Virus record (IMG/VR): IMGVR_UViG_3300025137_004926
Reading direction: 5' to 3' (one strand)
Origin: a virus
Length of the DNA stretch: 64,000 nt
Part shown: positions 19,660 to 64,000 of the stretch, in pieces
Numbering within the stretch: the stretch's first letter is position 1
Layout of the letters: every line of letters begins with the position of its first letter
Translations under genes and position numbers: made by a program
The notes under the pieces: model-generated
The model's database searches: none
Told to the model about the DNA's origin: nothing
What the model saw: only the letters and a program-made list of their open reading frames with translations

Positions 19660-20808
19660 ATGAATAATTATATTTTTACAAGCGAGAGTGTTAGCGAAGG
19701 TCATCCGGACAAAGTAGCAGACCAAATTAGTGATGCATTAGTTGATGCAGGACTAAAGAATGGTGATGAAACAACACGTGTAGCGATTGAAACACTTGTA
19801 ACCACTAACCACGTAACGTTAGCGGGCGAAGTAAAAAACTTTAACGTGAGCAATGATGAGATAAAAGAAATTGTTCGAAACAAAGTTAAAGATATTGGAT
19901 ATGAACAAGAAGGATTTCATTGGGATAAACTAAAAATCTATAATGAAATTCATGCACAGAGTGGTGATATTGGTTTAGGTACAGATAATTTTGGTGCTGG
20001 TGACCAAGGGTTGATGTTTGGATATGCATGTAACCATACAGATAGTATGATGCCTGCACCGATACATTATGCACATGAACTACTAAAAGCATTGAAACGT
20101 TTAAGAGTAGACGAAGGATACGAATACATACAACCTGACTCAAAATCACAAGTAAGTCTACAGTATGAAGGTGGCAAGGTAAAACGTGTAGACCAAGTGG
20201 TGGTCTCGTCACAACATATTCCTCAATACGAACATTCTATCAGAATGCCTCTATCGAACATTGTACACGAAGTATTAGGAGATTTAGTTGACAATGATAC
20301 AGTCAAACATTACAATCCTACAGGAAAATTTGAAATTGGTGGGCCTGACGGTGATACAGGACTTACAGGAAGAAAAATTATTGTGGATACCTATGGTGGT
20401 TTTGCTCCTCACGGTGGGGGTGCTTTTAGTGGAAAAGATCCTACCAAAGTAGATAGAAGTGCGGCATATATGGCACGTTGGATAGCAAAAAACGTTGTAG
20501 CAGATAATATGGCTGATTGGTGTAATATTCAATTAAGTTATGCTATTGGTATTAAAGAACCAACAAGTATCTACATTGATTCAAACGGACACAATCGTAG
20601 TATTGAGAAGTTTATTAAAGAAAATATTGACTTGACACCTAAGGGTATTATTGATAGATTTGATTTATTTAATTTTTATAAGTATAGTGAGAATTGTGTT
20701 TATGGTCACTTTGGTGATAAGAAAGTTCCTTGGGAACACATAGGGTGGAACGGTGTACAGAACGAAGATGCTGATGCACTGGAAGCCGAAATAAATGAAG
20801 GATGTTAG
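19660..20808 (+). CDS. metK: S-adenosylmethionine synthetase
   Basis: FTSESVSEGHPDK, GAGDQG, GGGAFSGKD. Confidence 0.97.
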   Translation: MNNYIFTSESVSEGHPDKVADQISDALVDAGLKNGDETTRVAIETLVTTNHVTLAGEVKNFNVSNDEIKEIVRNKVKDIGYEQEGFHWDKLKIYNEIHAQSGDIGLGTDNFGAGDQGLMFGYACNHTDSMMPAPIHYAHELLKALKRLRVDEGYEYIQPDSKSQVSLQYEGGKVKRVDQVVVSSQHIPQYEHSIRMPLSNIVHEVLGDLVDNDTVKHYNPTGKFEIGGPDGDTGLTGRKIIVDTYGGFAPHGGGAFSGKDPTKVDRSAAYMARWIAKNVVADNMADWCNIQLSYAIGIKEPTSIYIDSNGHNRSIEKFIKENIDLTPKGIIDRFDLFNFYKYSENCVYGHFGDKKVPWEHIGWNGVQNEDADALEAEINEGC

Positions 20809-27215: not shown

Positions 27216-27240
27216 AAAAACTTGATTTAATTTAGGTCAA

Positions 27241-27286
27241 AAACTTGACAGATTAGAGAATCGTGTTATAGTGTATACATAATGAA
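27241..27286 (+). promoter_or_regulatory. Repeated early-type promoter, copy 1
   Basis: AAACTTGACA-N7-GAATCGTGT-TATAGT-GTATACATAATGAA. Confidence 0.7.
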
Positions 27287-27305
27287 TAACAAAGGAAGTG
27301 AAAAT

Positions 27306-28433
27306 ATGTCTGCAAAAGTTTCAACACATGATATGGATGTTCGAATTGTACGTCCTTCTGATATAAAAGCTGAAATCAATTATGCTTTTAATCGTCAACG
27401 ACCCGTCTTTATTTGGGGTCCCCCCGGAGTAGGTAAATCTGAGATAGTAGATACTATCACACAAGAAAGGTCAGGTTATATGATTGACCTTAGACTTGCT
27501 CTTATGGAACCTACTGATTTACGAGGTATCCCATACTATAATGAGAAAACAAACACTATGGATTGGGCAACACCTTCTGACTTACCTAGTCAAGAACTTG
27601 CTGACCAGTTTGAAAACATTGTATTGTTTTTAGATGAAATGAACCAAGCACCGCAATCAGTACAAGCGGCGGCTTATCAACTTATTCTTAATAGGCGTTT
27701 AGGTAATTATACTCTACCTGATAATGTTCTTATTGTTGCCGCTGGTAACAGAGAATCAGATAGAGGTGTTGCTTATAGAATGCCTTCTCCACTTGCTAAC
27801 AGATTTGTACACTTAGAAATGGGTGTTGACTTTGAAGATTGGCAGACTTGGGCATTAGAAAATAAAATCCATGCTGATGTTGTAGGTTACTTAACATCTA
27901 ATAAAATGGACTTGTTTAACTTTGACCCTAGAACTGCTTCAAGGGCTTTCGCAACTCCTAGGTCTTGGACATTTACATCACAGTTGATGCCGATGGAAGG
28001 TGAAACTATTGATGATAGTAAACTACATGACTTGATTGCAGGTACTGTCGGTGATGGTGTTGCTACTAAGTTTATGGCTCACCGAGCGATTTCAGGTAAA
28101 CTCCCTAATCCAACTGATATCTTAAAAGGTAAGGTCAAAACGGTATCTAGGGAAGCTAAGGAAATCTCAGCTATGTTCTCTCTAACTGCTTCACTATGTT
28201 ATGAGTTAAAAGAACATGCCGAGAAAAACAAAGGTAAGATGGATGAGTTATACAAAATGGCTGACAACTTTTTCAGGTTCATGATGGATAACTTTGAAAC
28301 TGAAATGATTGTTCTAGGTGGTAGAACTGCACTAAAAGTTTACAAACTTCCACTAGAGCCTAGGAAGGTTCCTTGTATCGAGGAGTTCTTTAAGAAATAC
28401 GGTAAGTTGATTATCGAGGCTCATAACGCATAA
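27306..28433 (+). CDS. MoxR-like AAA+ ATPase
   Basis: GPPGVGKS, LFLDE, AAGNR, PLANRF, TPRSW. Confidence 0.9.
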   Translation: MSAKVSTHDMDVRIVRPSDIKAEINYAFNRQRPVFIWGPPGVGKSEIVDTITQERSGYMIDLRLALMEPTDLRGIPYYNEKTNTMDWATPSDLPSQELADQFENIVLFLDEMNQAPQSVQAAAYQLILNRRLGNYTLPDNVLIVAAGNRESDRGVAYRMPSPLANRFVHLEMGVDFEDWQTWALENKIHADVVGYLTSNKMDLFNFDPRTASRAFATPRSWTFTSQLMPMEGETIDDSKLHDLIAGTVGDGVATKFMAHRAISGKLPNPTDILKGKVKTVSREAKEISAMFSLTASLCYELKEHAEKNKGKMDELYKMADNFFRFMMDNFETEMIVLGGRTALKVYKLPLEPRKVPCIEEFFKKYGKLIIEAHNA

Positions 28434-28460
28434 GAGCAGACACTTTAATGCGTTTAAGAG

Positions 28461-28500
28461 GGAGAGAGGTCTTGACTTCTCTCCTTTTTTTTGTTATAAT
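28461..28500 (+). promoter_or_regulatory. Overlapping terminator and sigma70 promoter of the acyl operon
   Basis: Stem GGAGAGAGGT-CTTG-ACTTCTCTCC + T8; TTGACT(28472)-17bp-TATAAT(28495). Confidence 0.7.
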
Positions 28501-28505
28501 TAGAT

Positions 28506-29876
28506 ATGATTTGGGAAACAATTAAAGCACAGGCAAAGATCCACGGCAGTAAAACTGCCTTGATATGCCATGATAAAAGTTATACATATAGAGAATTAGT
28601 TGAGAGTGTAGAAAAACTATCGGCTACATTATCTACAGCCATCAGACCTGGTGAGCGAGTATTATTTGCAAGTGAAAAAGAATATCATTATGTAAGAATG
28701 GTTCTGGCATGTGATGCCTTAGGTGTAACATTTATGCCAACGTTTCCCAATTTATCAGATGAAATAGTTGAACGTATAAAGAATGCAAGTCACCCAAATC
28801 ATATAATTCTAAGTGAAGACGATGCACTAAAACTAAAGCCACACAATAAAGGCTTAATGTTTGCCAAAGGTGCAGACGATTTGTATACTGTTATATTTAC
28901 TAGCGGTACTACAGGAGAGCCTAAGGCGGTCCCACATACTAGAATGGCTTGCATTCAAGGTTCAATACAAAACATCTTAATACAAACTTTAACATCCGAT
29001 GATGTAATACTTTCACAACTTCCTCCTTGGACTATTGGTGGACTGTATCTATATACACTTCCAGGTCTAATGAAAGGTTCTACAGTAATTTGTGAAATGT
29101 TTAATCCAAGACGTTATATACAAATATGTAAAGAATATAAACCTACTATAGGTATTATTGTTCCTGCTATGATGTTGGCACTATCTAAAATCAGAGGCTG
29201 GAAAGAAGCAGACTTATCTCACTGGCGTGAGTTAGGGTTCGGTAGTACAGTTTGTCCTAAAGAAATGTTACAAGAACTATTTGACAAGGGAGCACCTGCA
29301 TTAAGAAACTTATATGGTTGTACAGAAACACATGTACCGATGTTTACACATTTGGCAACTCCAGATGATCCACATCCTTTGCAAATTCATATCACTGATA
29401 ACTATGATTTCAAATTAGATAGATATGGTGTTGCTTGGATTAAAGGTGATTGTGTTACAAAAGGATATCTAAATCAAGAGACACCTATAGATGATGATGG
29501 TTATTGGAGTACTGGTGATGTACTAGAAACTCAGCATAATCTTTTATTTTATAAATCACGTAAAACTGATTTAATAAAAGTCAATAGTTATAATGTATCT
29601 CCTGTTAGGATCGAGAATATGTTTCTACCACATACTGATGTTAATGAAGTTTGCGTAACATACCGTGATAGAGAACTAGGAGAGAAAGAAATTGTTGCAG
29701 TAGTCAGTGTGGATAGCAAGATAAATAGTGATGAGTTAATGAAATTTGTTAAAGATAAGCTATTTCAGTACGAATTGCCCAAAGAGATTATTATTACAAC
29801 AGATCCATTACCAAGAAACCCTATGGGAAAAGTTCAGAGACATGTTGTCAGGGAAAAGTTTGTGGAGACAGAATGA
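28506..29876 (+). CDS. AMP-dependent acyl-CoA/acyl-ACP ligase
   Basis: FTSGTTGEPK, YGCTE, TGD, PRNPMGKV. Confidence 0.9.
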   Translation: MIWETIKAQAKIHGSKTALICHDKSYTYRELVESVEKLSATLSTAIRPGERVLFASEKEYHYVRMVLACDALGVTFMPTFPNLSDEIVERIKNASHPNHIILSEDDALKLKPHNKGLMFAKGADDLYTVIFTSGTTGEPKAVPHTRMACIQGSIQNILIQTLTSDDVILSQLPPWTIGGLYLYTLPGLMKGSTVICEMFNPRRYIQICKEYKPTIGIIVPAMMLALSKIRGWKEADLSHWRELGFGSTVCPKEMLQELFDKGAPALRNLYGCTETHVPMFTHLATPDDPHPLQIHITDNYDFKLDRYGVAWIKGDCVTKGYLNQETPIDDDGYWSTGDVLETQHNLLFYKSRKTDLIKVNSYNVSPVRIENMFLPHTDVNEVCVTYRDRELGEKEIVAVVSVDSKINSDELMKFVKDKLFQYELPKEIIITTDPLPRNPMGKVQRHVVREKFVETE

Positions 29877-31567
29877 AGAATAAAGTAAATAAAATTGTCA
29901 TTCTAGGTGGCGGTGCGGCAGGTTGGTTCACTGCTGGATATTTAAAATACAAAAATCCTAATATTGATATAACATTAATTGAAAGTAAAAAGATAGGCAT
30001 CGTTGGTGTAGGCGAAAGTACTATACCTCAACTTGGTGACTTCTTTAAAGAAATGGGCATTGAAGAACGTGACTGGATGAGCCATACAAATTCAATATAC
30101 AAACTAGGTAATAAGTTTGTTGGTTGGAATAAAGAAGGCAACAGAGACCATGTCACTAATCACTGGAACTGTTCTAAATTTGAAGAACAGTATTTTTCAT
30201 TCTCATTTGCTTTACCTGAAAAACATTTAACAACAAGTTTCTATCATCAATTACAAACAAAAGATTTCTTTACTAACTCAAAAGGTGATCCTGGTGTAGA
30301 TGATAAATGGAATGATTACTGGTTGCAATTATGCCGTGATGGCAGAAAGAACTGGTGGGAAATGTCTGAGGATATGCAAGAGCAAACATATTTAATGGAC
30401 ATGAACAAAGCACCATTTGATATGGATGATAATATTCTCATTGGTAACTGGCAGGCAAAAACATATCATGTAGATGCAGAAAGATTTCCAGAAGTAGTTA
30501 GAGATAGAGTTGCATTGCCTAGTGGTGTAAAGCATGTTTGGGGTCACGTAAAAGATATTGTAAAAGATAATGAAGGTTACGTAGAAAAATTAGTATTAGA
30601 AGATGGATCAGAATTTGAAGCAGATTTATTCTGTGATGCAACAGGCTTCAATCGTTTACTAACAGGAACAATGAATAATGGTTGGCATGATTATGACCAT
30701 ATCTTTACACGTGATGCGATTGTAGGTCCAGTAGAATACAAAGATGTGTATTCAGAGTTTAGACCTTACACACAATCATATGCAGGCGATGAAGGTTGGA
30801 CATTTATTATCTCACTATTCAATCGTATGGGTTCAGGATATATCTTTGATAAAACTGAGATAAGCCCAGAAGAAGCTAAAGAAAAGTTTATGAAGTATTG
30901 GGATGGGTATAAGTTTATTAAAGAACCAAGACATATTACATGGGAGTCAGGTCGTATGAAAACTCCTTGGAATAAAAATGTAGTTGGTATCGGAATGGCT
31001 GGTGCGTTTGTAGAACCAATGGAAGCTAATTCGTTGTATGTCGCACAGGCATCTATTCAGTTAGTACATAGAATTATCAATCGTGCTAAAGATGAAGATG
31101 CAGTAATCAATCCTTCGCAACTTTATGCATACAATAGAAACATGTGCCAATTAGAAGATGGTATTGCAGACTTTGTTGCTTATCACTTTACTCTATCAGA
31201 TAGAGAAGACACACCTTTCTGGCGTAAGCAAAAGCAGTTAGGTATAGAAAGAAATCATAAAGAAGCATGTTGGAATGAATATAATAGACCTACAAACCAC
31301 ATAGGTAATGGTGTGTATCCAGACTACATGTGGGCTATGTTAGCCGTGTATTTGAACAAGTTTGATGATAGTGTCAAACTAAATACTAGAAAAGAATTAA
31401 TGGAAAAAGCCAATATCATGTTTGAATACTGTAATAAAATGAGTAAAGAAAACGGCAAGTATGCACCACATGCCTACGATTGGCACCGTAAGTTTTTATT
31501 TGAAGGAAAAGATTACAAACAAGTATTGGAAGAAGCACTAGCAAAAGTATCTAGGAATATTGCATAA
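29873..31567 (+). CDS. Flavin-dependent halogenase, tryptophan-halogenase family
   Basis: GGGAAG, GVGESTIP, YKLG..FVGW, DATGF, GWTFII, FVEPMEA. Confidence 0.85.
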   Translation: MKNKVNKIVILGGGAAGWFTAGYLKYKNPNIDITLIESKKIGIVGVGESTIPQLGDFFKEMGIEERDWMSHTNSIYKLGNKFVGWNKEGNRDHVTNHWNCSKFEEQYFSFSFALPEKHLTTSFYHQLQTKDFFTNSKGDPGVDDKWNDYWLQLCRDGRKNWWEMSEDMQEQTYLMDMNKAPFDMDDNILIGNWQAKTYHVDAERFPEVVRDRVALPSGVKHVWGHVKDIVKDNEGYVEKLVLEDGSEFEADLFCDATGFNRLLTGTMNNGWHDYDHIFTRDAIVGPVEYKDVYSEFRPYTQSYAGDEGWTFIISLFNRMGSGYIFDKTEISPEEAKEKFMKYWDGYKFIKEPRHITWESGRMKTPWNKNVVGIGMAGAFVEPMEANSLYVAQASIQLVHRIINRAKDEDAVINPSQLYAYNRNMCQLEDGIADFVAYHFTLSDREDTPFWRKQKQLGIERNHKEACWNEYNRPTNHIGNGVYPDYMWAMLAVYLNKFDDSVKLNTRKELMEKANIMFEYCNKMSKENGKYAPHAYDWHRKFLFEGKDYKQVLEEALAKVSRNIA

Positions 31568-32292
31568 TGACATACCAAAATAAAGTAACATTGAAAGTAT
31601 TTTTTATGTTAGCAGTAGCCGTGATTGGAATACCTGCTTACTTCTATATGGGCGGTTCATGGCAACTTGCTCTTGCTTTTACTTTATATGGTTGTGTTAC
31701 TAATGCATTATCACAAATTGCATATCATAGATGGTTGTGTCACGACCAGTTTGTTCCACATATACTAGGACGTTTAGCAATGCTATATGGTATTGTTATG
31801 AGTGCTAATGGTAGTCCTATACAATATGTTTACTCACATTTAAATCATCATAAGAATTCAGATAAAGAAAAAGATACACACAATCCAGCAGAGTTAGGAT
31901 TGTTTAAAATGTGGTTAGGTCAGTATAAGACACCAGAAGATTTTATTAGTTTGCGTTTTTTATTAAGAAAACGTGATGTAGTTTTTGTTGATAGACATTA
32001 CTGGAAACTATATGTATTGTTCACATTAATACATTTCATCATAACACCTTGGTTAGTTGTATGGCAAGCATTTAATTTTACTCATATGTGGGTAGCATTA
32101 ACTTGGTTAAACTATGCGGCTCACAAAGATGGTGGACCTAGTAAACTAACTGGCTTTGCAAACGTATGGATGATGGGTGAAGGGTGCCATGATATACATC
32201 ATAATTATGCTAATAGATTAGATATGTCACATGATGATTTAACAGATTGGGCTGGCAGATATTATATACCAGCATTGTTGGCTAAAAGATGA
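31567..32292 (+). CDS. Membrane fatty acid desaturase
   Basis: His boxes HRWLCH, HLNHH, HDIHH. Confidence 0.85.
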   Translation: MTYQNKVTLKVFFMLAVAVIGIPAYFYMGGSWQLALAFTLYGCVTNALSQIAYHRWLCHDQFVPHILGRLAMLYGIVMSANGSPIQYVYSHLNHHKNSDKEKDTHNPAELGLFKMWLGQYKTPEDFISLRFLLRKRDVVFVDRHYWKLYVLFTLIHFIITPWLVVWQAFNFTHMWVALTWLNYAAHKDGGPSKLTGFANVWMMGEGCHDIHHNYANRLDMSHDDLTDWAGRYYIPALLAKR

Positions 32293-32459
32293 GAAGTTTA
32301 TTAAAAATATGGCAGTATGCCTTAGGGTCTTACTCAGATGATAAGACAAAACCTTATGACACACAAATGTTAATCATAAGAACTTTTTGGGTACTACTAC
32401 ACATTACTACATGTGTAATGATTATACTAGGTAACGGTCATTTAATGGGTTGGTGGTAA
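32289..32459 (+). CDS. Small membrane protein, 56 aa (absent from the ORF track)
   Basis: MRSLLKIWQYALGSYSDDKTKPYD..GWW; ATGA and TAATG overlaps on both sides. Confidence 0.65.
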   Translation: MRSLLKIWQYALGSYSDDKTKPYDTQMLIIRTFWVLLHITTCVMIILGNGHLMGWW

Positions 32460-33073
32460 TGAAAGTATTAGAAACATTTACTGGTGCACAAAATTATGAA
32501 TTTAAAGTTGTAGAATACGACAGTAGTATGAAAGCAGACCTAGAAGAATTTTGTCAGAAATGTGACAAGGCAGGCATACTAAATAATGCTAGTCTCAAAG
32601 CATTAAAGTTTGGCAAATGGGGTTCACAAGAGAACTGGTGGTTTGTTTATCATGAGGATAAAATAATATCAATGGCAGGAGCACATTACTTGCCACATGT
32701 ACATGATACATGTTATATGATAAATTATAGATTAGCAACATTACCTGAGTGGCGTAATATGGCAGATGATAGACAGAATACTAGAAGAATGTATCATGAG
32801 TTTGGATTTGCAAGATTAGTTCCTTTTATGGCTGATTGGGCTGTTGAACAAGGTGCAACTGATTGTGTAGTGACTACCGCATCAGAAGACCACAGTGACG
32901 ATAGAAGTGGTACGATGCACAAGATATGGAGATTTGCTTACGTGGCTTGGCCACATGAAGATAAGTTATCTCTATTGCATAAGGATTTCCCATTGTATGG
33001 GATTAAGCAAGATGTATGGAGATTTAATTGGAGAAACTTTCGTACAGGTGAAAGGATAGAATATGCTAGATAA
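32459..33073 (+). CDS. Putative GNAT-fold acyltransferase
   Basis: KIISMAG..YRLATLPEWR pattern resembles GNAT strands and motif A; start MKVLE by TAATG coupling. Confidence 0.45.
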   Translation: MKVLETFTGAQNYEFKVVEYDSSMKADLEEFCQKCDKAGILNNASLKALKFGKWGSQENWWFVYHEDKIISMAGAHYLPHVHDTCYMINYRLATLPEWRNMADDRQNTRRMYHEFGFARLVPFMADWAVEQGATDCVVTTASEDHSDDRSGTMHKIWRFAYVAWPHEDKLSLLHKDFPLYGIKQDVWRFNWRNFRTGERIEYAR

Positions 33074-33839
33074 AATAACATATGGTTGGAAAATGAGAAT
33101 ACTATGGATTGTATTGCATATTGTATTAATTTACAGTATTATATCAGCGCCAGAGTATTTTTGGTATTCATTTGTATGGGGTTGCATAACAACTATGGTA
33201 GGTGGCTTTGCTGGTTGGCATAGATATTGGGCTCATAGAAGTTATCAGACAGGAAGGAAAAGACAAGTACTTCTTCTTTGGTGGGGTGCATTGGGCTTTC
33301 CAGGTAAACCACTTCCTACTCTAGGTGGACATAGATTACATCACAAATATGCAGATGTAGAAGGTATGGATATTCATTCACCAAGAGAAAAATCATGGTG
33401 GGAAAACTTGATGGGTTTTTATGAAGACTTCCCTCCTGAACGTAGAATTTTTAAAGACTTGTATTTGGATCCACAAGTAAGATTTATGCAACGATATTAT
33501 TTTCAAATTATAACAGTTGCAATGATTGTATTATTCTTAATCGATCCAATCTTACCCGGTTACGTATTGGGTATCACAGGTGTATATCAATTTTGGGTAG
33601 GTACATTCGGTATAGTACACTTACTACATATATTTGGTAAATCAGACCATGACACAGGAGACGATAGTAAAAATAGTTGGTTACTTGCAGTGTTTACATT
33701 CGGAGAAGGTTGGCATAACAATCATCATAACAATAGTTTAAGTTATACCACACAAGAAAAATGGTATCAGTTTGACCCGACCGGGTTAGTAATTAAATAT
33801 TTTATAGCAACGGATTTAACACATGACCGTATATATTAA
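33063..33839 (+). CDS. Delta-9-like membrane fatty acid desaturase
   Basis: HRYWAH, HRLHH, GEGWHNNHH. Confidence 0.9.
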   Translation: MLDKITYGWKMRILWIVLHIVLIYSIISAPEYFWYSFVWGCITTMVGGFAGWHRYWAHRSYQTGRKRQVLLLWWGALGFPGKPLPTLGGHRLHHKYADVEGMDIHSPREKSWWENLMGFYEDFPPERRIFKDLYLDPQVRFMQRYYFQIITVAMIVLFLIDPILPGYVLGITGVYQFWVGTFGIVHLLHIFGKSDHDTGDDSKNSWLLAVFTFGEGWHNNHHNNSLSYTTQEKWYQFDPTGLVIKYFIATDLTHDRIY

Positions 33840-34971
33840 TGACCTGTCTTGCTTTACACCTTTCGGTGATTTAGAGCAAACATGGAAGGGCGTAACAGAA
33901 AACAAAGTAGCATATGGACCTATTACTAAGTTTGATCCAAATGAAAGTAGATACACACGAAGCAAAGTAGCAGGTGAGTTTCATTTTAATGCAGAAGATT
34001 ATCCTATCATAACAGAATCAGAACGTGATAGACTTCCAGAATCTAATCAATGGGCGTTAGCATTAGCAAGTAAAATAGATTTAGATACAATAGATAAAAG
34101 TAGAACAGGTGTTATTGTTTCACCAGGCTTTTCAATGTACTTAGAAATACTAAAAGCAAATAAGGATAATGCAGATAACATTTATCATTACTGTCCTGAT
34201 ATGATTGCACACAATATAAACATGAAATATGGTTTAACTGGTGCTAGTGCAATAACATTAACTGCCTGTAGTACAGGTATCTACAGTGTTATATGGGCTT
34301 CTATGATGATTGAAATGGGAATGATAGACCATGCTTTAGCAGGCTCAGTAGATGTAACAATACAACCAGACGCATTCAAACAGATGGGTAAACTAAGAGC
34401 CTTATCAACCAAATATAATGATACACCAAAGAAAGCATCAAGACCATATGATATCGGACGTGATGGATTAGTATTAAGTGAAGGTGGCGCAATATTCTTA
34501 TTAAGTAAAGATAAGACAAATAAAACAATTTGTCAAATAGATGGGTATGCAGTAAACAACGATGCATATCAAACTGTGGCACCACATCCTAACGGAAAAG
34601 AAGTACAAAAATGCATGTCAGATGCGTTGAAAGGTTCAACACCTAGTCTTATTAATGTTCACGGAACATCAACACCAATGGGTGACTATGCAGAACTAGA
34701 TGCTATCAATAGATTAGGATTACAAGATGTACCGATAGTTGCTAACAAATCGCAGTTAGGACACTGTATGGGAGCCGCAGGCTCTGTAGAGTTAGCTATG
34801 TCTATTATGTCTCTAAAACACGCTATTATACCGCCTACGGTCAACGTAGAAGCGTTTGAAGAAGGATATAGTCCAAAGATATACAATACGTCAACTAGTG
34901 CAGAAATAACGTCTGTATTGTGTAATTCTTTCGGTTTTGGCGGTACGAATGCTAGTATTTTAATTAGCTAA
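33823..34971 (+). CDS. fabF: Beta-ketoacyl-ACP synthase (FabF-like)
   Basis: TACSTG, HGTST, KSQLGHCMGAAG, NSFGFGGTN; Cys-His-His triad intact. Confidence 0.9.
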   Translation: MTVYINDLSCFTPFGDLEQTWKGVTENKVAYGPITKFDPNESRYTRSKVAGEFHFNAEDYPIITESERDRLPESNQWALALASKIDLDTIDKSRTGVIVSPGFSMYLEILKANKDNADNIYHYCPDMIAHNINMKYGLTGASAITLTACSTGIYSVIWASMMIEMGMIDHALAGSVDVTIQPDAFKQMGKLRALSTKYNDTPKKASRPYDIGRDGLVLSEGGAIFLLSKDKTNKTICQIDGYAVNNDAYQTVAPHPNGKEVQKCMSDALKGSTPSLINVHGTSTPMGDYAELDAINRLGLQDVPIVANKSQLGHCMGAAGSVELAMSIMSLKHAIIPPTVNVEAFEEGYSPKIYNTSTSAEITSVLCNSFGFGGTNASILIS

Positions 34972-35017
34972 AAACTTGACAATATCACGAATCGTGTTAT
35001 TATGTATACATAATGAA
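34972..35017 (+). promoter_or_regulatory. Repeated early-type promoter, copy 2
   Basis: AAACTTGACA-N7-GAATCGTGT-TATTAT-GTATACATAATGAA. Confidence 0.7.
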
Positions 35018-35036
35018 AGAAAAAGGTGACTCAAAT

Positions 35037-36356
35037 ATGCAAGTAGAAAAAGCACAATCAGTAGACGATATTGTTGATAATGCATTAAAAGGTGCAGGCA
35101 TCGAAATTGATGAAAATTCAAGCGAACCTGTAGTATTCGACTATACTGATAAAGAAGTCAAAGAAATGATTGTCGCTGGTAGAGTAAGAATGCTTATCAA
35201 ACATCCATTCTTTGGTACACTTGCTACAAGATTAAAATTAGTTGAGGCAGAATGGTGTCCAACAGCCGCAGTTGACGGCAAACATTTTTATTATAACTGT
35301 GATTTTTTCAGAACTCTAACATCGGAAGAGATTGACTTTGTAGTAGGTCATGAGGTTCTTCACTGTGTTTATGACCATTGTGGTGAAGGTGGTCGTCTAT
35401 TTGATTTTGATGAAAAGAATCGTGATGCTCAACTTTGGAACGTAGCCGCTGACTATAAAGTTAATCAAGGCTGTGTTGAAAGTAGAATTGGTGTCATGCC
35501 AAAATCTGCATTATTTGATACAAAATATCATGGTAAGTACACTGAGGAAATTTATCAACATCTGAAACAAACAGGTCAAGGTCAAGACAAAAAAACACTT
35601 GACCAACATATCATGGGTAATGGTAATGATTCAACAGGTGGTACTGGTGAAACTGATCCTACAGGACGTAAAGCACCAATCAAAATTTCTAAGGAAGAAG
35701 CAAAACAACTTAAAGACCAAATGAAACAGGCTGTTATTCAAGCGGCTCAAACTGCTGGTGCTGGTAATATGCCTGGTGATATCAAAAGACTTGTTAAGTC
35801 TATGACAGAACCTAAGATGGATTGGCGACAGTTACTTAATACATCTATTCTAAGTTTACTTAAATCAGATTTCACATGGATGAAACAATCAAGAAAATCT
35901 AGGTCAATGGGTGTTTATCTTCCTGGTCAAGATAACGATACTATGATTGATTTAGGTATCGGTCTTGATGTTTCAGGTTCTATTGATAATCAAATGTTGG
36001 CTGACTTCATGGGTGAAGTTGGAGGCATCATGCAACAGTTTCAGGACTTTAGACTTAGAGTTTGGACTTTCGATACTGAGGTTAATGAATTTTCATTCAA
36101 AGAATTTACTCCGATGAATGCAGATGAAATTAAAGACTATGAGATTAAAGGCGGTGGTGGTACTGACTTTGATTGTAACTTTAGTTTCATGGAACAAAAC
36201 GATATCAATCCTGATAAGTTTGTAATGTTTACTGATGGGTATCCATTTGGTAGTTGGGGCAATCCAAACTACTGTGATACACTATTTGTTATTCATGGAA
36301 GTGAATCAATCATCCCACCATTTGGCGAACACGCCTACTATCAAAAAGCCGCATAA
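35037..36356 (+). CDS. Metallopeptidase-like plus VWA domain protein (MoxR partner)
   Basis: HEVLH; MIDAS DVSGS; GGGGTDF; FTDG. Confidence 0.85.
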   Translation: MQVEKAQSVDDIVDNALKGAGIEIDENSSEPVVFDYTDKEVKEMIVAGRVRMLIKHPFFGTLATRLKLVEAEWCPTAAVDGKHFYYNCDFFRTLTSEEIDFVVGHEVLHCVYDHCGEGGRLFDFDEKNRDAQLWNVAADYKVNQGCVESRIGVMPKSALFDTKYHGKYTEEIYQHLKQTGQGQDKKTLDQHIMGNGNDSTGGTGETDPTGRKAPIKISKEEAKQLKDQMKQAVIQAAQTAGAGNMPGDIKRLVKSMTEPKMDWRQLLNTSILSLLKSDFTWMKQSRKSRSMGVYLPGQDNDTMIDLGIGLDVSGSIDNQMLADFMGEVGGIMQQFQDFRLRVWTFDTEVNEFSFKEFTPMNADEIKDYEIKGGGGTDFDCNFSFMEQNDINPDKFVMFTDGYPFGSWGNPNYCDTLFVIHGSESIIPPFGEHAYYQKAA

Positions 36357-36404: not shown

Positions 36405-36947
36405 ATGAGCGATACATTACTATTGAATGCGGACTACAAACCTCTCGGACTTTCACCTCTTTCTACATTAACATGGCAAGAAAGCATTAAACTTATCTGG
36501 CTTGATAAGATTAACGTAGTCGAATGGCATGACGATTGGGAAGTACATAGTCCTAGTCACACCATGCGTGTCCCTAGTGTCATTGCAGTACGTGAATATG
36601 TGTCTCAGAATAAAGAAGGTATAAATTTCTCACGTAAAAATGTATTCATACGTGACCATTATACTTGTCAATATTGTTTAGATGCATTCCCTTCAAAAGA
36701 ACTTACACTGGATCATGTTATACCTAGGTCAAAAGGTGGCAAGTCTGGTTGGGATAATATGGTATCTGCATGTAAAAAATGTAATCTAGCAAAGGGTTCA
36801 AGAACTGATATAAGTCCTGTAAGAGTACCAACTAAACCAAATTTTTACAATCTAATGTCTCAAAAGAACTTCACAGTAAGGATAAAACACCGTATTTGGT
36901 TAAATTACCTTGATTGGCCTGAGAAATATGTTGATTTAGTAGCATAA
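36405..36947 (+). CDS. HNH endonuclease
   Basis: RDHYTCQYC, TLDHVIPRSKGG, CKKCN..KG. Confidence 0.9.
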   Translation: MSDTLLLNADYKPLGLSPLSTLTWQESIKLIWLDKINVVEWHDDWEVHSPSHTMRVPSVIAVREYVSQNKEGINFSRKNVFIRDHYTCQYCLDAFPSKELTLDHVIPRSKGGKSGWDNMVSACKKCNLAKGSRTDISPVRVPTKPNFYNLMSQKNFTVRIKHRIWLNYLDWPEKYVDLVA

Positions 36948-36962
36948 TTATTAAATAAAGGC

Positions 36963-36991
36963 TTGACTTCGTTACCCCAATTTGTTATAAT
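36963..36991 (+). promoter_or_regulatory. Sigma70-type promoter
   Basis: TTGACT-17bp-TATAAT with TG. Confidence 0.7.
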
Positions 36992-62364: not shown

Positions 62365-62601
62365 ATGAGTAAAACACTAAAAGTACTTAAAGAATTAGCA
62401 CTACGAGACCATGAAGTAACTCTAACACCAGACCATATTACTGCTGGAACTAAGTTTTCAGAACTAGGAATAGACAGTTTGGACTCAATAGAAATGATGG
62501 TATCACTAGAAGACGAACTTGATATAGAACTCAACAACGACAAGCTAGAACGAATAGAGAACATCGCACAGCTAGTAGAGTATCTAAGAGAGTTTGATTA
62601 A
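62365..62601 (+). CDS. acpP: Acyl carrier protein
   Basis: Acidic 78 aa; LGIDSLDSIEMMVSLEDE phosphopantetheine site. Confidence 0.9.
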   Translation: MSKTLKVLKELALRDHEVTLTPDHITAGTKFSELGIDSLDSIEMMVSLEDELDIELNNDKLERIENIAQLVEYLREFD

Positions 62602-63257: not shown

Positions 63258-63399
63258 CGATTTAAATCACAATCCAGACTATAACAAACACTATAAGAGA
63301 TACTTCCCTGAACTGCACCCTGACTACACAGTTAAGCACAGTATACCGGAAAGGTTCTACAATGCTATGCGTAGGGTTATAGCACAGTTGTGGAAATAA
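63238..63399 (+). CDS. Small hypothetical protein, 53 aa
   Basis: MKILPSDDLNHNPDYNKHYKRYFPELHP..; purine-rich upstream sequence. Confidence 0.3.
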   Translation: MKILPSDDLNHNPDYNKHYKRYFPELHPDYTVKHSIPERFYNAMRRVIAQLWK

Positions 63400-63634
63400 A
63401 CGATTAATTAATTAATTAATTTAATATCTGAGATTCCTTTTAGGAACAACGTCCCTCCTTCCGCGGTAATTAATTTATTTTCCTGCAACGTATGGGCTAT
63501 ATGTACCTTTAAGACGCCTTAGAGCGTGATACAGCGTGATTCGCCACCATTCTGGTATACTATTATACACTATACCTAAACGTTTCTCTACGTTGCTTAT
63601 ATAGGGTTATCTATAGTATAATTAATTAATCCAA

Positions 63635-63666
63635 AAACTTGACAAATCCACGAATCAGTGTATACT
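63635..63666 (+). promoter_or_regulatory. Repeated early-type promoter, copy 3
   Basis: AAACTTGACA-N7-GAATC-AGTG-TATACT. Confidence 0.65.
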
Positions 63667-63698
63667 GTAAGTATAGAATGAAAGATGAGGGAACAAAT

Positions 63699-64000
63699 AT
63701 GCAAGAACAGTTAGACAATTTAATTCAGAATATTAAGAATGATTACTTAAAGTGGACTTCACGTAACGGTACGAAAGAGTTAACAGAAGTAAACACCAAT
63801 ATGATTGCTGAATTTAATTCAAAGATTACCCTTAAAGAGGGTCAAAAGTATATCAAAGTTATCAGCGGAGGTTCAGTATGGGGCTTTATCGCTAAGGATG
63901 ACTTTAATAAAGGAAGTAAGTGTTTTAATAAAGGTGATATCTTAAAAGCCGCTGGATGGCAGGCTCCTGCTCTCAATGCCGCAAGAGGTAATATCTTTGA
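63699..64000 (+). CDS. Phage hypothetical protein, runs off the window
   Basis: GAGG SD; MQEQLD..KYIKVI..SVWGFI..GDILKAAGWQAPA..ARGNIF, no stop before the window end. Confidence 0.7.
   Translation, partial: MQEQLDNLIQNIKNDYLKWTSRNGTKELTEVNTNMIAEFNSKITLKEGQKYIKVISGGSVWGFIAKDDFNKGSKCFNKGDILKAAGWQAPALNAARGNIF

Follow-up and report, generated by a model that had tools for sequence, protein, structure and literature searches.

The question addressed here is whether the overlapping genes at positions 28506-34971 of a viral DNA stretch of 64,000 nucleotides (IMG/VR record IMGVR_UViG_3300025137_004926; hereafter, the window) belong to one virus-encoded pathway, and which of them make up its core. 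A preliminary description of the window had read these genes as an assembly line that loads, extends, desaturates, possibly halogenates and transfers an acyl group. We found a single conserved cassette, in which a ligase, a halogenase, a predicted GNAT-fold acyltransferase and a ketosynthase (KS) are always kept and the desaturases are not.

Gene order and conservation of the cassette

All seven open reading frames (ORFs) were confirmed on the plus strand. Every junction overlaps, by 4, 1, 4, 1 (10 if the fifth gene starts at TTG), 11 and 17 nt, and the cassette spans 6.5 kb. The genes and their predicted products are as follows.

28506-29876, plus strand: ANL-superfamily acid-CoA/carrier ligase, 456 aa (Pfam AMP-binding 2.2e-49, AMP-binding_C)
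29873-31567, plus strand: flavin-dependent halogenase, Trp-halogenase (variant A) class, 564 aa (PF04820)
31567-32292, plus strand: membrane desaturase A, 241 aa, lineage-specific accessory (His boxes HRWLCH, HLNHH, HDIHH)
32289-32459, plus strand: small hydrophobic ORF, 56 aa, optional insert (phrog_1679, 3.5e-9)
32459-33073, plus strand: GNAT-fold acyltransferase, 204 aa from ATG, core gene (AlphaFold2 (AF2) fold; the ORF finder's TTG start is at 32450)
33063-33839, plus strand: membrane desaturase B, 258 aa, stearoyl-CoA desaturase (SCD)/delta-9 type, lineage-specific accessory (PF00487, 6.5e-10)
33823-34971, plus strand: FabF-like elongating KS, 382 aa, core gene (Pfam ketoacyl-synt N and C domains, about 1e-26)

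Related loci were collected by KS-seeded and KS-profile searches, which gave 28 loci in IMG/VR and 3 more from ENA assemblies. Gene order was counted in the 30 loci that have upstream DNA. Lack of co-occurrence in relatives had been named beforehand as a result that would speak against a common pathway; across these viral genomes, co-occurrence was found in 30/30 loci. The order was always a MoxR-type AAA+ ATPase gene (AAA), ligase-halogenase-GNAT-KS, variable genes and the gene of a VWA-like partner (VWA), and this was so down to 55% KS identity. The invariant core consists of the four enzymes ligase, halogenase, GNAT and KS. Two desaturase genes flank the GNAT gene in nine loci and in the window, one lies before the GNAT gene in four loci, one lies after the KS gene in two, and 15 of the 30 loci have none. 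Since they can be absent and vary in number and position, the desaturases are accessory tailoring genes and not core chemistry. The 56-aa ORF, which is not an enzyme, is confined to the window and its closest relatives (L003/L004-type loci; dN/dS 0.07).

The dN/dS values of every cassette gene were between 0.05 and 0.17, and the flanking core genes were in the same range. This purifying selection, together with the fixed order in 30/30 loci, places the cassette far beyond chance. The relatives of the cassette genes derive from Tara and other marine metagenomes. No match to the cassette was obtained by blastn against 50,697 GenBank phage records, and tblastn of the KS against the same records gave only matches of 36% identity or less, in unannotated or contaminated records. 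The literature that we searched contains no description of the cassette.

The cassette had been assigned a promoter of its own, and a near-consensus promoter was indeed found, at a position that is kept in nine lineages.

28456-28489, plus strand: terminator-like hairpin and T-run closing the AAA gene; the 3' arm holds the -35 box of the cassette promoter
28472-28500, plus strand: predicted cassette promoter, TTGACT-N17-TATAAT with a TG-extended -10 box, 11/12 matches, inside the hairpin

The stem of the hairpin is retained through compensatory changes in the nine lineages. The promoter ends 5 nt 5' of the ligase ATG. Since the end of the -10 box lies 4-6 nt before this ATG across the nine lineages, the cassette mRNA is suggested to be leaderless or near-leaderless. 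A promoter of the cassette type is also present at 36962-36991. The catalytic motifs had been described as intact, and the ligase motifs, the GxGxxG, Lys and Glu of the halogenase, the His boxes of the desaturases, and the Cys-His-His triad and gate Phe of the KS are all present and conserved. Thus, the observation made in the preliminary description is confirmed, and comparison of the sequences supports one conserved, co-transcribed, phage-borne enzyme cassette.

Among the phage genes of the window are those of a tail protein and of a family-B DNA polymerase (phrog_262, 1e-191). The identity of the DNA polymerase to its counterparts is 48% for Sinorhizobium phage Phosso and 45% for Agrobacterium phage Atu_ph07. 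Therefore, judged from the polymerase matches and the phage gene content, the source is an uncultured jumbo phage of the T4 superfamily. With 28 mismatches, the window is nearly identical to a 103-kb IMG/VR viral contig (G000) at its positions 39709-103021; a completeness of about 28% is given for this contig. A close relative (G001) is a complete genome of 342,607 bp with terminal repeats.

Predicted activities of the cassette enzymes

Ligase: The ligase scored 168.7 bits against PF00501 (cut-off 29.9) and remained under every NCBIfam cut-off. It possesses the motifs TSGTTGEPK (A3, residue 132), TGD and PRNPMGK (A10 Lys, residue 436). The closest solved relatives are CoA ligases (feruloyl/fatty-acyl, 4e-31; 4CL, MatB, FadD13 and MenE), and carrier-loading adenylases follow at about 1e-18. 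The best 60 solved relatives are CoA ligases and luciferases, with FadD10 alone as a partial match (8e-19) and no FAAL structure near the top; the protein, at 456 aa, is short. Thus, an ANL ligase with intact motifs is confirmed, and it resembles CoA ligases more than carrier-loading adenylases.

Halogenase: The Trp_halogenase family PF04820 was matched at 2.4e-90 (304 bits against a cut-off of 21). The 30 solved Trp-type halogenases gave E-values of 4e-62 to 4e-34 with full-length similarity. In contrast, the values for other solved types were 4e-5 (5bva), 4e-4 (CmlS), 0.21 (CndH) and 0.25 (PltA). With the free-substrate and carrier-dependent classes defined as in PMC8407142, the enzyme belongs, by sequence similarity, to the free-substrate Trp-halogenase class and not to the carrier-dependent one. 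Since it falls in this class, halogenation of a saturated chain tethered to an acyl carrier protein (ACP) would be unlikely. The earlier idea that halogenation takes place on the assembly line is therefore disfavored (Trp-type E<=1e-34, against 0.2-0.25 for PltA and CndH).

In 11 sequences, the halogenase motifs GGGAAGW, YK77LGNKF and EPMEAN show little or no variation. The WxWxIP motif was not found; the clade has GW-x-F-[IV]-I-[SPT] instead, so that the second Trp is Phe and, in the window, the Pro is Ser. WxWxIP blocks monooxygenation, and some active flavin-dependent halogenases (FDHs) do not have the motif (PMC8407142). Because of these active enzymes, the variation lowers strict class membership but would leave a halogenase-like mechanism unaffected. 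At the tunnel motif Fx.Px.Sx.G (PMC8407142), the phage enzyme reads FVEPMEANS, with F and P retained and Ala or Gly in place of Ser clade-wide, in an alignment register that is uncertain.

Across the whole halogenase ORF, the DNA identity of the window to one related locus (L003) drops from about 93% to about 70%, and that to another (L010) rises from about 76% to about 95%. Because these shifts are confined to the halogenase ORF, the gene represents a clean whole-gene allele exchange between lineages. The viral clade of the halogenase reaches about 41% identity, the next unnamed relatives have 34-36% and bacterial enzymes about 30%. VirX1 is the FDH of cyanophage Syn10 (PDB 6QGM; PMC8407142). 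Like VirX1, the phage halogenase is a virus-encoded enzyme of the variant A Trp class (match 9.2e-54), and both enzymes have the lysine (K77 in the window, K79 in VirX1) and the glutamate. VirX1 is a single enzyme to which no pathway is assigned in PMC8407142, whereas the halogenase studied here sits in a conserved four-enzyme operon and differs by W-x-F-x-I-[SPT], an insertion of about 40 aa and a length of about 564 aa.

In an independent pairing, a halogenase of this kind has a short adenylating enzyme as its partner in a T4-like phage contig (L033). The 193-aa ORF that follows this pair was considered as a candidate for the cassette GNAT and was ruled out (hhalign probability, 0.3%). Another virus-like contig (L024, 8001-10290) encodes a 414-aa protein with a C-terminal half of the cassette GNAT family; directly after it come a short gene of the Trp_halogenase family (351 aa) and a class IV aminotransferase gene.

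GNAT-fold protein: The 204-aa protein stayed below the Pfam threshold (Acetyltransf_1, 14.3 bits against 20.7; E 0.049). An AF2 model built on an alignment of 17 homologues had a pLDDT of 89.6 and a pTM of 0.87. With this model, Foldseek gave 155 matches at E<=1e-3, led by GNATs with a probability of 1.00, and the VIA search gave GNAT structures with Z scores of 11-12 over about 150 residues (top match 11.8, rmsd 3.4 Å, 151 residues aligned). On the evidence of the model, the protein has a GNAT fold. The family comprises 136 representative clusters. No relative was found in 185,579 species genomes, which were scanned by two peptide patterns only, and the family profile found no solved GNAT among the PDB sequences. 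GNATs of the LuxI, FeeM, OlsB and CurA types were not among the 50 neighbors listed per VIA search, where ties at Z of about 11 mean that nothing is excluded. Distant members of the family end radical-SAM gene arrays in other viral contigs (loci L022 and L023).

In an unrelated contig (L067, Logan SRR12901017, 903-8588), which looks cellular and not phage-derived, an AMP-binding domain is fused to a domain of the cassette GNAT family in one protein, P0129 (Pfam 9.4e-16; hhalign 96%, E 2.4e-9), and a KS gene lies immediately 3' of it. Since P0129 joins the two domains and the KS gene follows, this arrangement argues that ligase and GNAT may act consecutively, with the KS next. A lactonase-like beta-propeller gene, a DUF305 gene and a gene of the iodothyronine-deiodinase family (PF00837; a possible halogen link) are present in the same neighborhood.

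Ketosynthase: The KS retains Cys149, His280, His314 and the FGFGG gate in eight lineages (TACSTG, H(G/A)TSTPMGD, KSQLGH and NSFGFGG). Its top PDB match is 4jga (1.7e-53), which is annotated as 3-oxoacyl-ACP synthase 2. The enzyme belongs to a clade found only in phages (metagenome sequences only) of about 90 clusters with 54-99% identity, on contigs of up to 338 kb. Beyond this clade, there is a sharp drop to bacterial FabF at 33-35% identity, and the named ones are alphaproteobacterial. By sequence, the KS is FabF-like and not FabF. The fold, the Cys-His-His triad and the FGFGG gate are common to the phage KS and FabF (KAS II). In contrast, the phage KS has the low identity and the phage-only clade just described and is about 40 aa shorter, and no FabD, FabG, FabZ or FabI was found in the complete phage relative (see below).

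Desaturases: Desaturase B scored 39.6 bits against PF00487 (cut-off 29.7), possesses the His boxes HRYWAH, HRLHH and HNNHH, and was aligned over its full length to the stearoyl-CoA desaturase 4ymk (2.7e-19). Desaturase A gave no Pfam match and no PDB sequence match. Its His boxes are at residues 54, 91 and 208, hydrophobic segments are present, and it matches desaturase B in BLASTP at about 1e-15.

Carrier proteins, the proposed pathway and its alternatives

The preliminary description had pointed to an ACP outside the cassette, and this was borne out.

62365-62601, plus strand: ACP, 78 aa, candidate carrier (PF00550, 45.3 bits; GIDSLD motif with the DSL serine)

This ACP scored 47 bits against TIGR00517, which is below the cut-off, and lies 27 kb from the cassette. 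A second ACP gene is located at 20417-20617 of the contig G000, two genes downstream of a nitroreductase-family flavoprotein gene. The complete relative G001 encodes three ACPs, an AcpS-type phosphopantetheinyl transferase (PPTase) and one KS. In its genome, PF00698 (FabD), PF13561 (FabG/I), PF07977 (FabA/Z) and PF01613 (flavin reductase) were all absent. Among the partial contigs of divergent lineages, ACPs were found in four of five and a PPTase in one, and desaturase-free lineages have ACPs too. No ACP was found in the cassette-less relatives Phosso and PA5oct. It had been supposed that host enzymes may be borrowed. Because the complete relative encodes a PPTase and three ACPs, the PPTase is not; FabD, the enzymes of the reductive cycle and flavin reductase seem to be left to the host.

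A long radical-SAM-rich operon with a carbamoyltransferase gene (39979-62307, minus strand) is divergent from the ACP gene at 62365. Upstream of the window, a nine-gene minus-strand operon (G000, C1:25054-31196; L038) lies about 5 kb from the second ACP gene; its members include genes resembling those of QueC/PP-loop proteins and of sulfotransferases, and a 232-aa gene like an AMP-binding fragment. For this short AMP-binding gene (29975-30673 of G000), no link to the cassette was found.

On balance, by a modest margin over even chances, we favor the reading that the cassette, inserted between the MoxR-AAA and VWA genes of marine T4-superfamily jumbo phages, encodes one early-transcribed viral pathway. 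In this pathway, the ANL ligase would activate a carboxylic acid, most likely to the CoA thioester. The GNAT would then take the acyl group; transfer from CoA to holo-ACP as a priming step is favored, and transfer to an amine is the alternative. The KS, a FabF-like enzyme with a Cys-His-His triad, would add two carbons from malonyl-ACP. The halogenase would place Cl, Br or I on an electron-rich free precursor or product (aromatic, enol or alkyne). In the lineage of the window, two SCD-type di-iron membrane desaturases would add double bonds as optional tailoring. The phage would supply ACPs and the AcpS-type PPTase, and the host would supply malonyl-ACP (FabD), any ketoreduction and dehydration, reduced flavin and the electron donors of the desaturases. 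The expected product is a halogenated (here unsaturated) acyl or aryl-acyl compound or conjugate.

Several points weigh against this reading. The substrate, the order of the steps, the carrier and the product are what we infer, and the promoter and leaderless start are predictions. The KS remains under the NCBIfam cut-offs for FabF (246.4 against 493.75 bits for TIGR03150, and 252.1 against 387 for PRK07314), its length falls short of FabF as noted above, and the KS beside P0129 is without the second His. There is no ACP in the cassette, and the three phage ACPs adjoin radical-SAM operons or a nitroreductase-family gene and may serve other pathways. The variant motifs of the halogenase (W-x-F-x-I-[SPT] and FxEPME[AG]N) make monooxygenase chemistry possible (PMC8407142). 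The structural neighbors of the GNAT are ordinary N-acetyltransferases tied at Z of about 11, and the nominal top match is a PAT domain that acetylates acyl-CoA synthetases, so that a regulatory or amide-forming role would be equally compatible.

In an amide-forming variant, the final step would fall to the GNAT. The ligase would make the acyl-CoA, or the KS would provide a beta-ketoacyl thioester, and the GNAT, working as an N-acyltransferase, would release the chain by joining it to an amine such as an amino acid, a polyamine or the head group of an aminolipid. A halogenated N-acyl amide or lipoamino acid would result. An ANL ligase with a GNAT is the standard pair by which an acid and an amine give an amide, as in acyl-CoA ligase with glycine N-acyltransferase. 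The top structural neighbors of the GNAT are all N-acyl or N-acetyltransferases, the AMP-binding-GNAT fusion fits consecutive ligase and GNAT steps, and no thioesterase or other release enzyme was found in the cassette with Pfam. However, ligase and GNAT are fused elsewhere and this variant has no clear position for the KS between them, no synthase of the LuxI, FeeM or OlsB type was among the 50 neighbors listed per VIA search, and no such Pfam family appeared at E<=10. We regard this variant as unlikely, with some chance of being right. Membrane-lipid remodeling, by which the ligase would recycle free fatty acids, the KS would boost or alter host elongation, the desaturases would raise lipid unsaturation, and the halogenase and GNAT would be unrelated, is quite improbable. 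Cyanophages carry desaturases, and phage lipid desaturases and ACPs are known auxiliary genes (phrog_5934). The SCD-type desaturases and a KS with a full triad, whose nearest cellular relatives are the FabF proteins of Alphaproteobacteria, would suit such a role. Nevertheless, the genes that are always kept are those of the halogenase and GNAT, not of the desaturases, the identity of the KS to any FabF is no more than 33-35% and its scores are under the NCBIfam FabF cut-offs, and the tight coupling and the recurrence of ligase-GNAT-KS elsewhere indicate one dedicated pathway.

The jamaicamide starter cassette JamA-JamB-JamC with the halogenase JamD is cyanobacterial, and JamD is reportedly a flavin halogenase able to act on alkynes. 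In a pathway of this type, a FAAL would load a fatty acid on the ACP, desaturases would turn the carrier-bound chain into a terminal alkene, alkyne or polyene, halogenation by a JamD-like enzyme would follow, and the KS would pass the chain on. The likeness lies in the combination of a ligase for acid activation with an ACP, a membrane desaturase, a flavin halogenase and a KS further downstream, which leads to a halogenated unsaturated acyl starter, and the lineage of the window combines a ligase, two membrane desaturases, a halogenase, a KS and phage ACPs. In the phage cassette, however, the genes are viral, the desaturases are missing from 15 of the 30 loci, differently placed in the rest and SCD/delta-9-like, the ligase is nearest to CoA ligases, with no FAAL near the top of the solved matches listed, the GNAT is invariant, and none of the loci has an ACP gene between AAA and VWA. 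We give this explanation slightly less credit than lipid remodeling, and alkyne or polyene formation of the JamABC type is not the core of the cassette. From the earlier assembly-line reading, a single conserved cassette of co-occurring genes stands; the desaturases, now accessory, leave its core to ligase, halogenase, GNAT and KS. The least probable explanation is protein modification or regulation, in which the GNAT would acylate the A10 lysine of the ligase, like Pat, or lipidate a phage or host protein, perhaps tied to the MoxR-VWA pair, with no free small molecule as the goal. The nominal top structure (4u5y, Z 11.8) shows the GNAT domain of PAT in complex with a domain of an acetyl-CoA synthetase, PatZ is listed too, the ligase has the PX4GK motif targeted by Pat enzymes (PRNPMGK), and the cassette lies constantly between the AAA and VWA genes. 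On the other hand, the Z scores are tied with those of dozens of unrelated GNATs, the position looks like an insertion hot spot (see below), and there is no obvious role for the KS and the halogenase in protein acetylation. Since the desaturases are dispensable, the halogenase and GNAT are invariant, and ligase-GNAT-KS recurs, the JamABC-type, lipid and protein-acylation explanations are weakened.

Returning to one dedicated viral pathway, we tentatively extend it as follows, at less than even chances. The phages may make their own halogenated product of the polyketide or fatty-acyl type during infection, by a virus-specific ligase-GNAT-KS module with phage ACPs and PPTase, and may diversify it through the exchange of halogenase alleles and tailoring genes among phages that infect the same cell. 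Single metabolic genes are known from viruses, and biosynthetic gene clusters from some temperate phages. What would be new is a conserved pathway of several enzymes, including a KS, a halogenase and carrier machinery of its own, in large marine T4-superfamily phages. According to Dragos et al. (10.1101/2020.10.01.322628), phage-carried biosynthetic clusters are mostly in temperate phages of commensal and pathogenic bacteria. The cassette is likewise a phage-encoded biosynthetic cluster and differs by a KS and halogenase pathway in T4-superfamily marine jumbo phages. The loading module of the CurA-type polyketide synthase (PKS; Gu et al. 2007) is described in PMC3701320 as a GNAT-like domain, an ACP and then a KS. 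By analogy with that description, a GNAT-fold unit directly before a KS that prepares the primer may be compared with the phage GNAT-KS and with P0129-KS. In contrast to CurA, whose domain uses malonyl units according to the same account, the phage proteins stand alone and have no detectable sequence similarity to any solved GNAT; the likeness is positional only.

If the proposed pathway is true, infected cells would produce halogenated compounds specified by the virus, with consequences for marine organohalogen chemistry, for phage-host and phage-phage conflict and for enzyme discovery. It would be an evolving virus-encoded small-molecule pathway, perhaps yielding a signal, or a weapon for use on competitors or grazers. 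Of interest among the enzymes are the phage-only KS clade, the halogenase clade with altered motifs and the GNAT family, which had no bacterial counterpart in one pattern-based scan (185,579 species genomes). Because the cassette is only 6.5 kb and the helper genes are known, the proposal is directly testable by expression.

The AAA-VWA region and other features

The genes on both sides of the cassette and the repeats before them are as follows.

27239-27308, plus strand: promoter/leader repeat copy 1, before the AAA gene, GAATC inside (repeat family D1, 70 nt)
27282-28433, plus strand: MoxR-type AAA+ ATPase, upstream flank, VWA partner (Pfam AAA_5/AAA; phrog_1297, 2.6e-99)
34970-35039, plus strand: promoter/leader repeat copy 2, before the VWA gene (70 nt, 76% identical to copy 1)
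35013-36356, plus strand: DUF2201/VWA-like partner of the AAA gene, downstream flank (phrog_1314; Pfam; preceded by the copy of the AAA promoter/leader)

In Sinorhizobium phage Phosso, the AAA and VWA homologues are directly adjacent with no cassette between them, and in PA5oct a homing endonuclease gene occupies the slot. Because of these two arrangements, the AAA-VWA slot looks like an insertion hot spot that, in the phages studied here, holds the cassette. All relatives have an HNH endonuclease gene (window 36405-36947) directly 3' of the VWA gene, and the region seems to attract mobile insertions. No integrase was noticed in the phage, and no search aimed at integrases was made.

The variable part of the slot can also be filled by an HxD...H-containing ORF of about 245 aa and by several ORFs without assignment. 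The ORFs of about 245 aa lie 3' of the KS gene (L029, 11778-12515; L011, 11550-12275) and gave no Pfam match; their pattern NAPHID ... WPH is suggestive of a putative 2-oxoglutarate/Fe(II) oxygenase. The commonest accessory gene (about 266 aa, 3' of the KS gene in desaturase-free lineages) also gave no Pfam match, and its AF2 model from nine sequences had a pLDDT of only 54.5.

The final 687 bases of the window (63314-64000) extend beyond the end of G000. The window is thus a slightly different, longer assembly of the same phage.

Strong sigma-70-like promoters end 5-9 nt before the ATG codons of the AAA, ligase and VWA genes (27245-27282, 28472-28506 and 34976-35013), without Shine-Dalgarno sequences. 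The promoter/leader of the AAA and VWA genes differs from the cassette promoter, and a GAATC box is present in the spacers of the AAA and VWA promoters. Because the promoters end so close to the ATG and no Shine-Dalgarno sequence is present, the sequences imply that the early mRNAs of AAA, ligase and VWA may be leaderless or near-leaderless.

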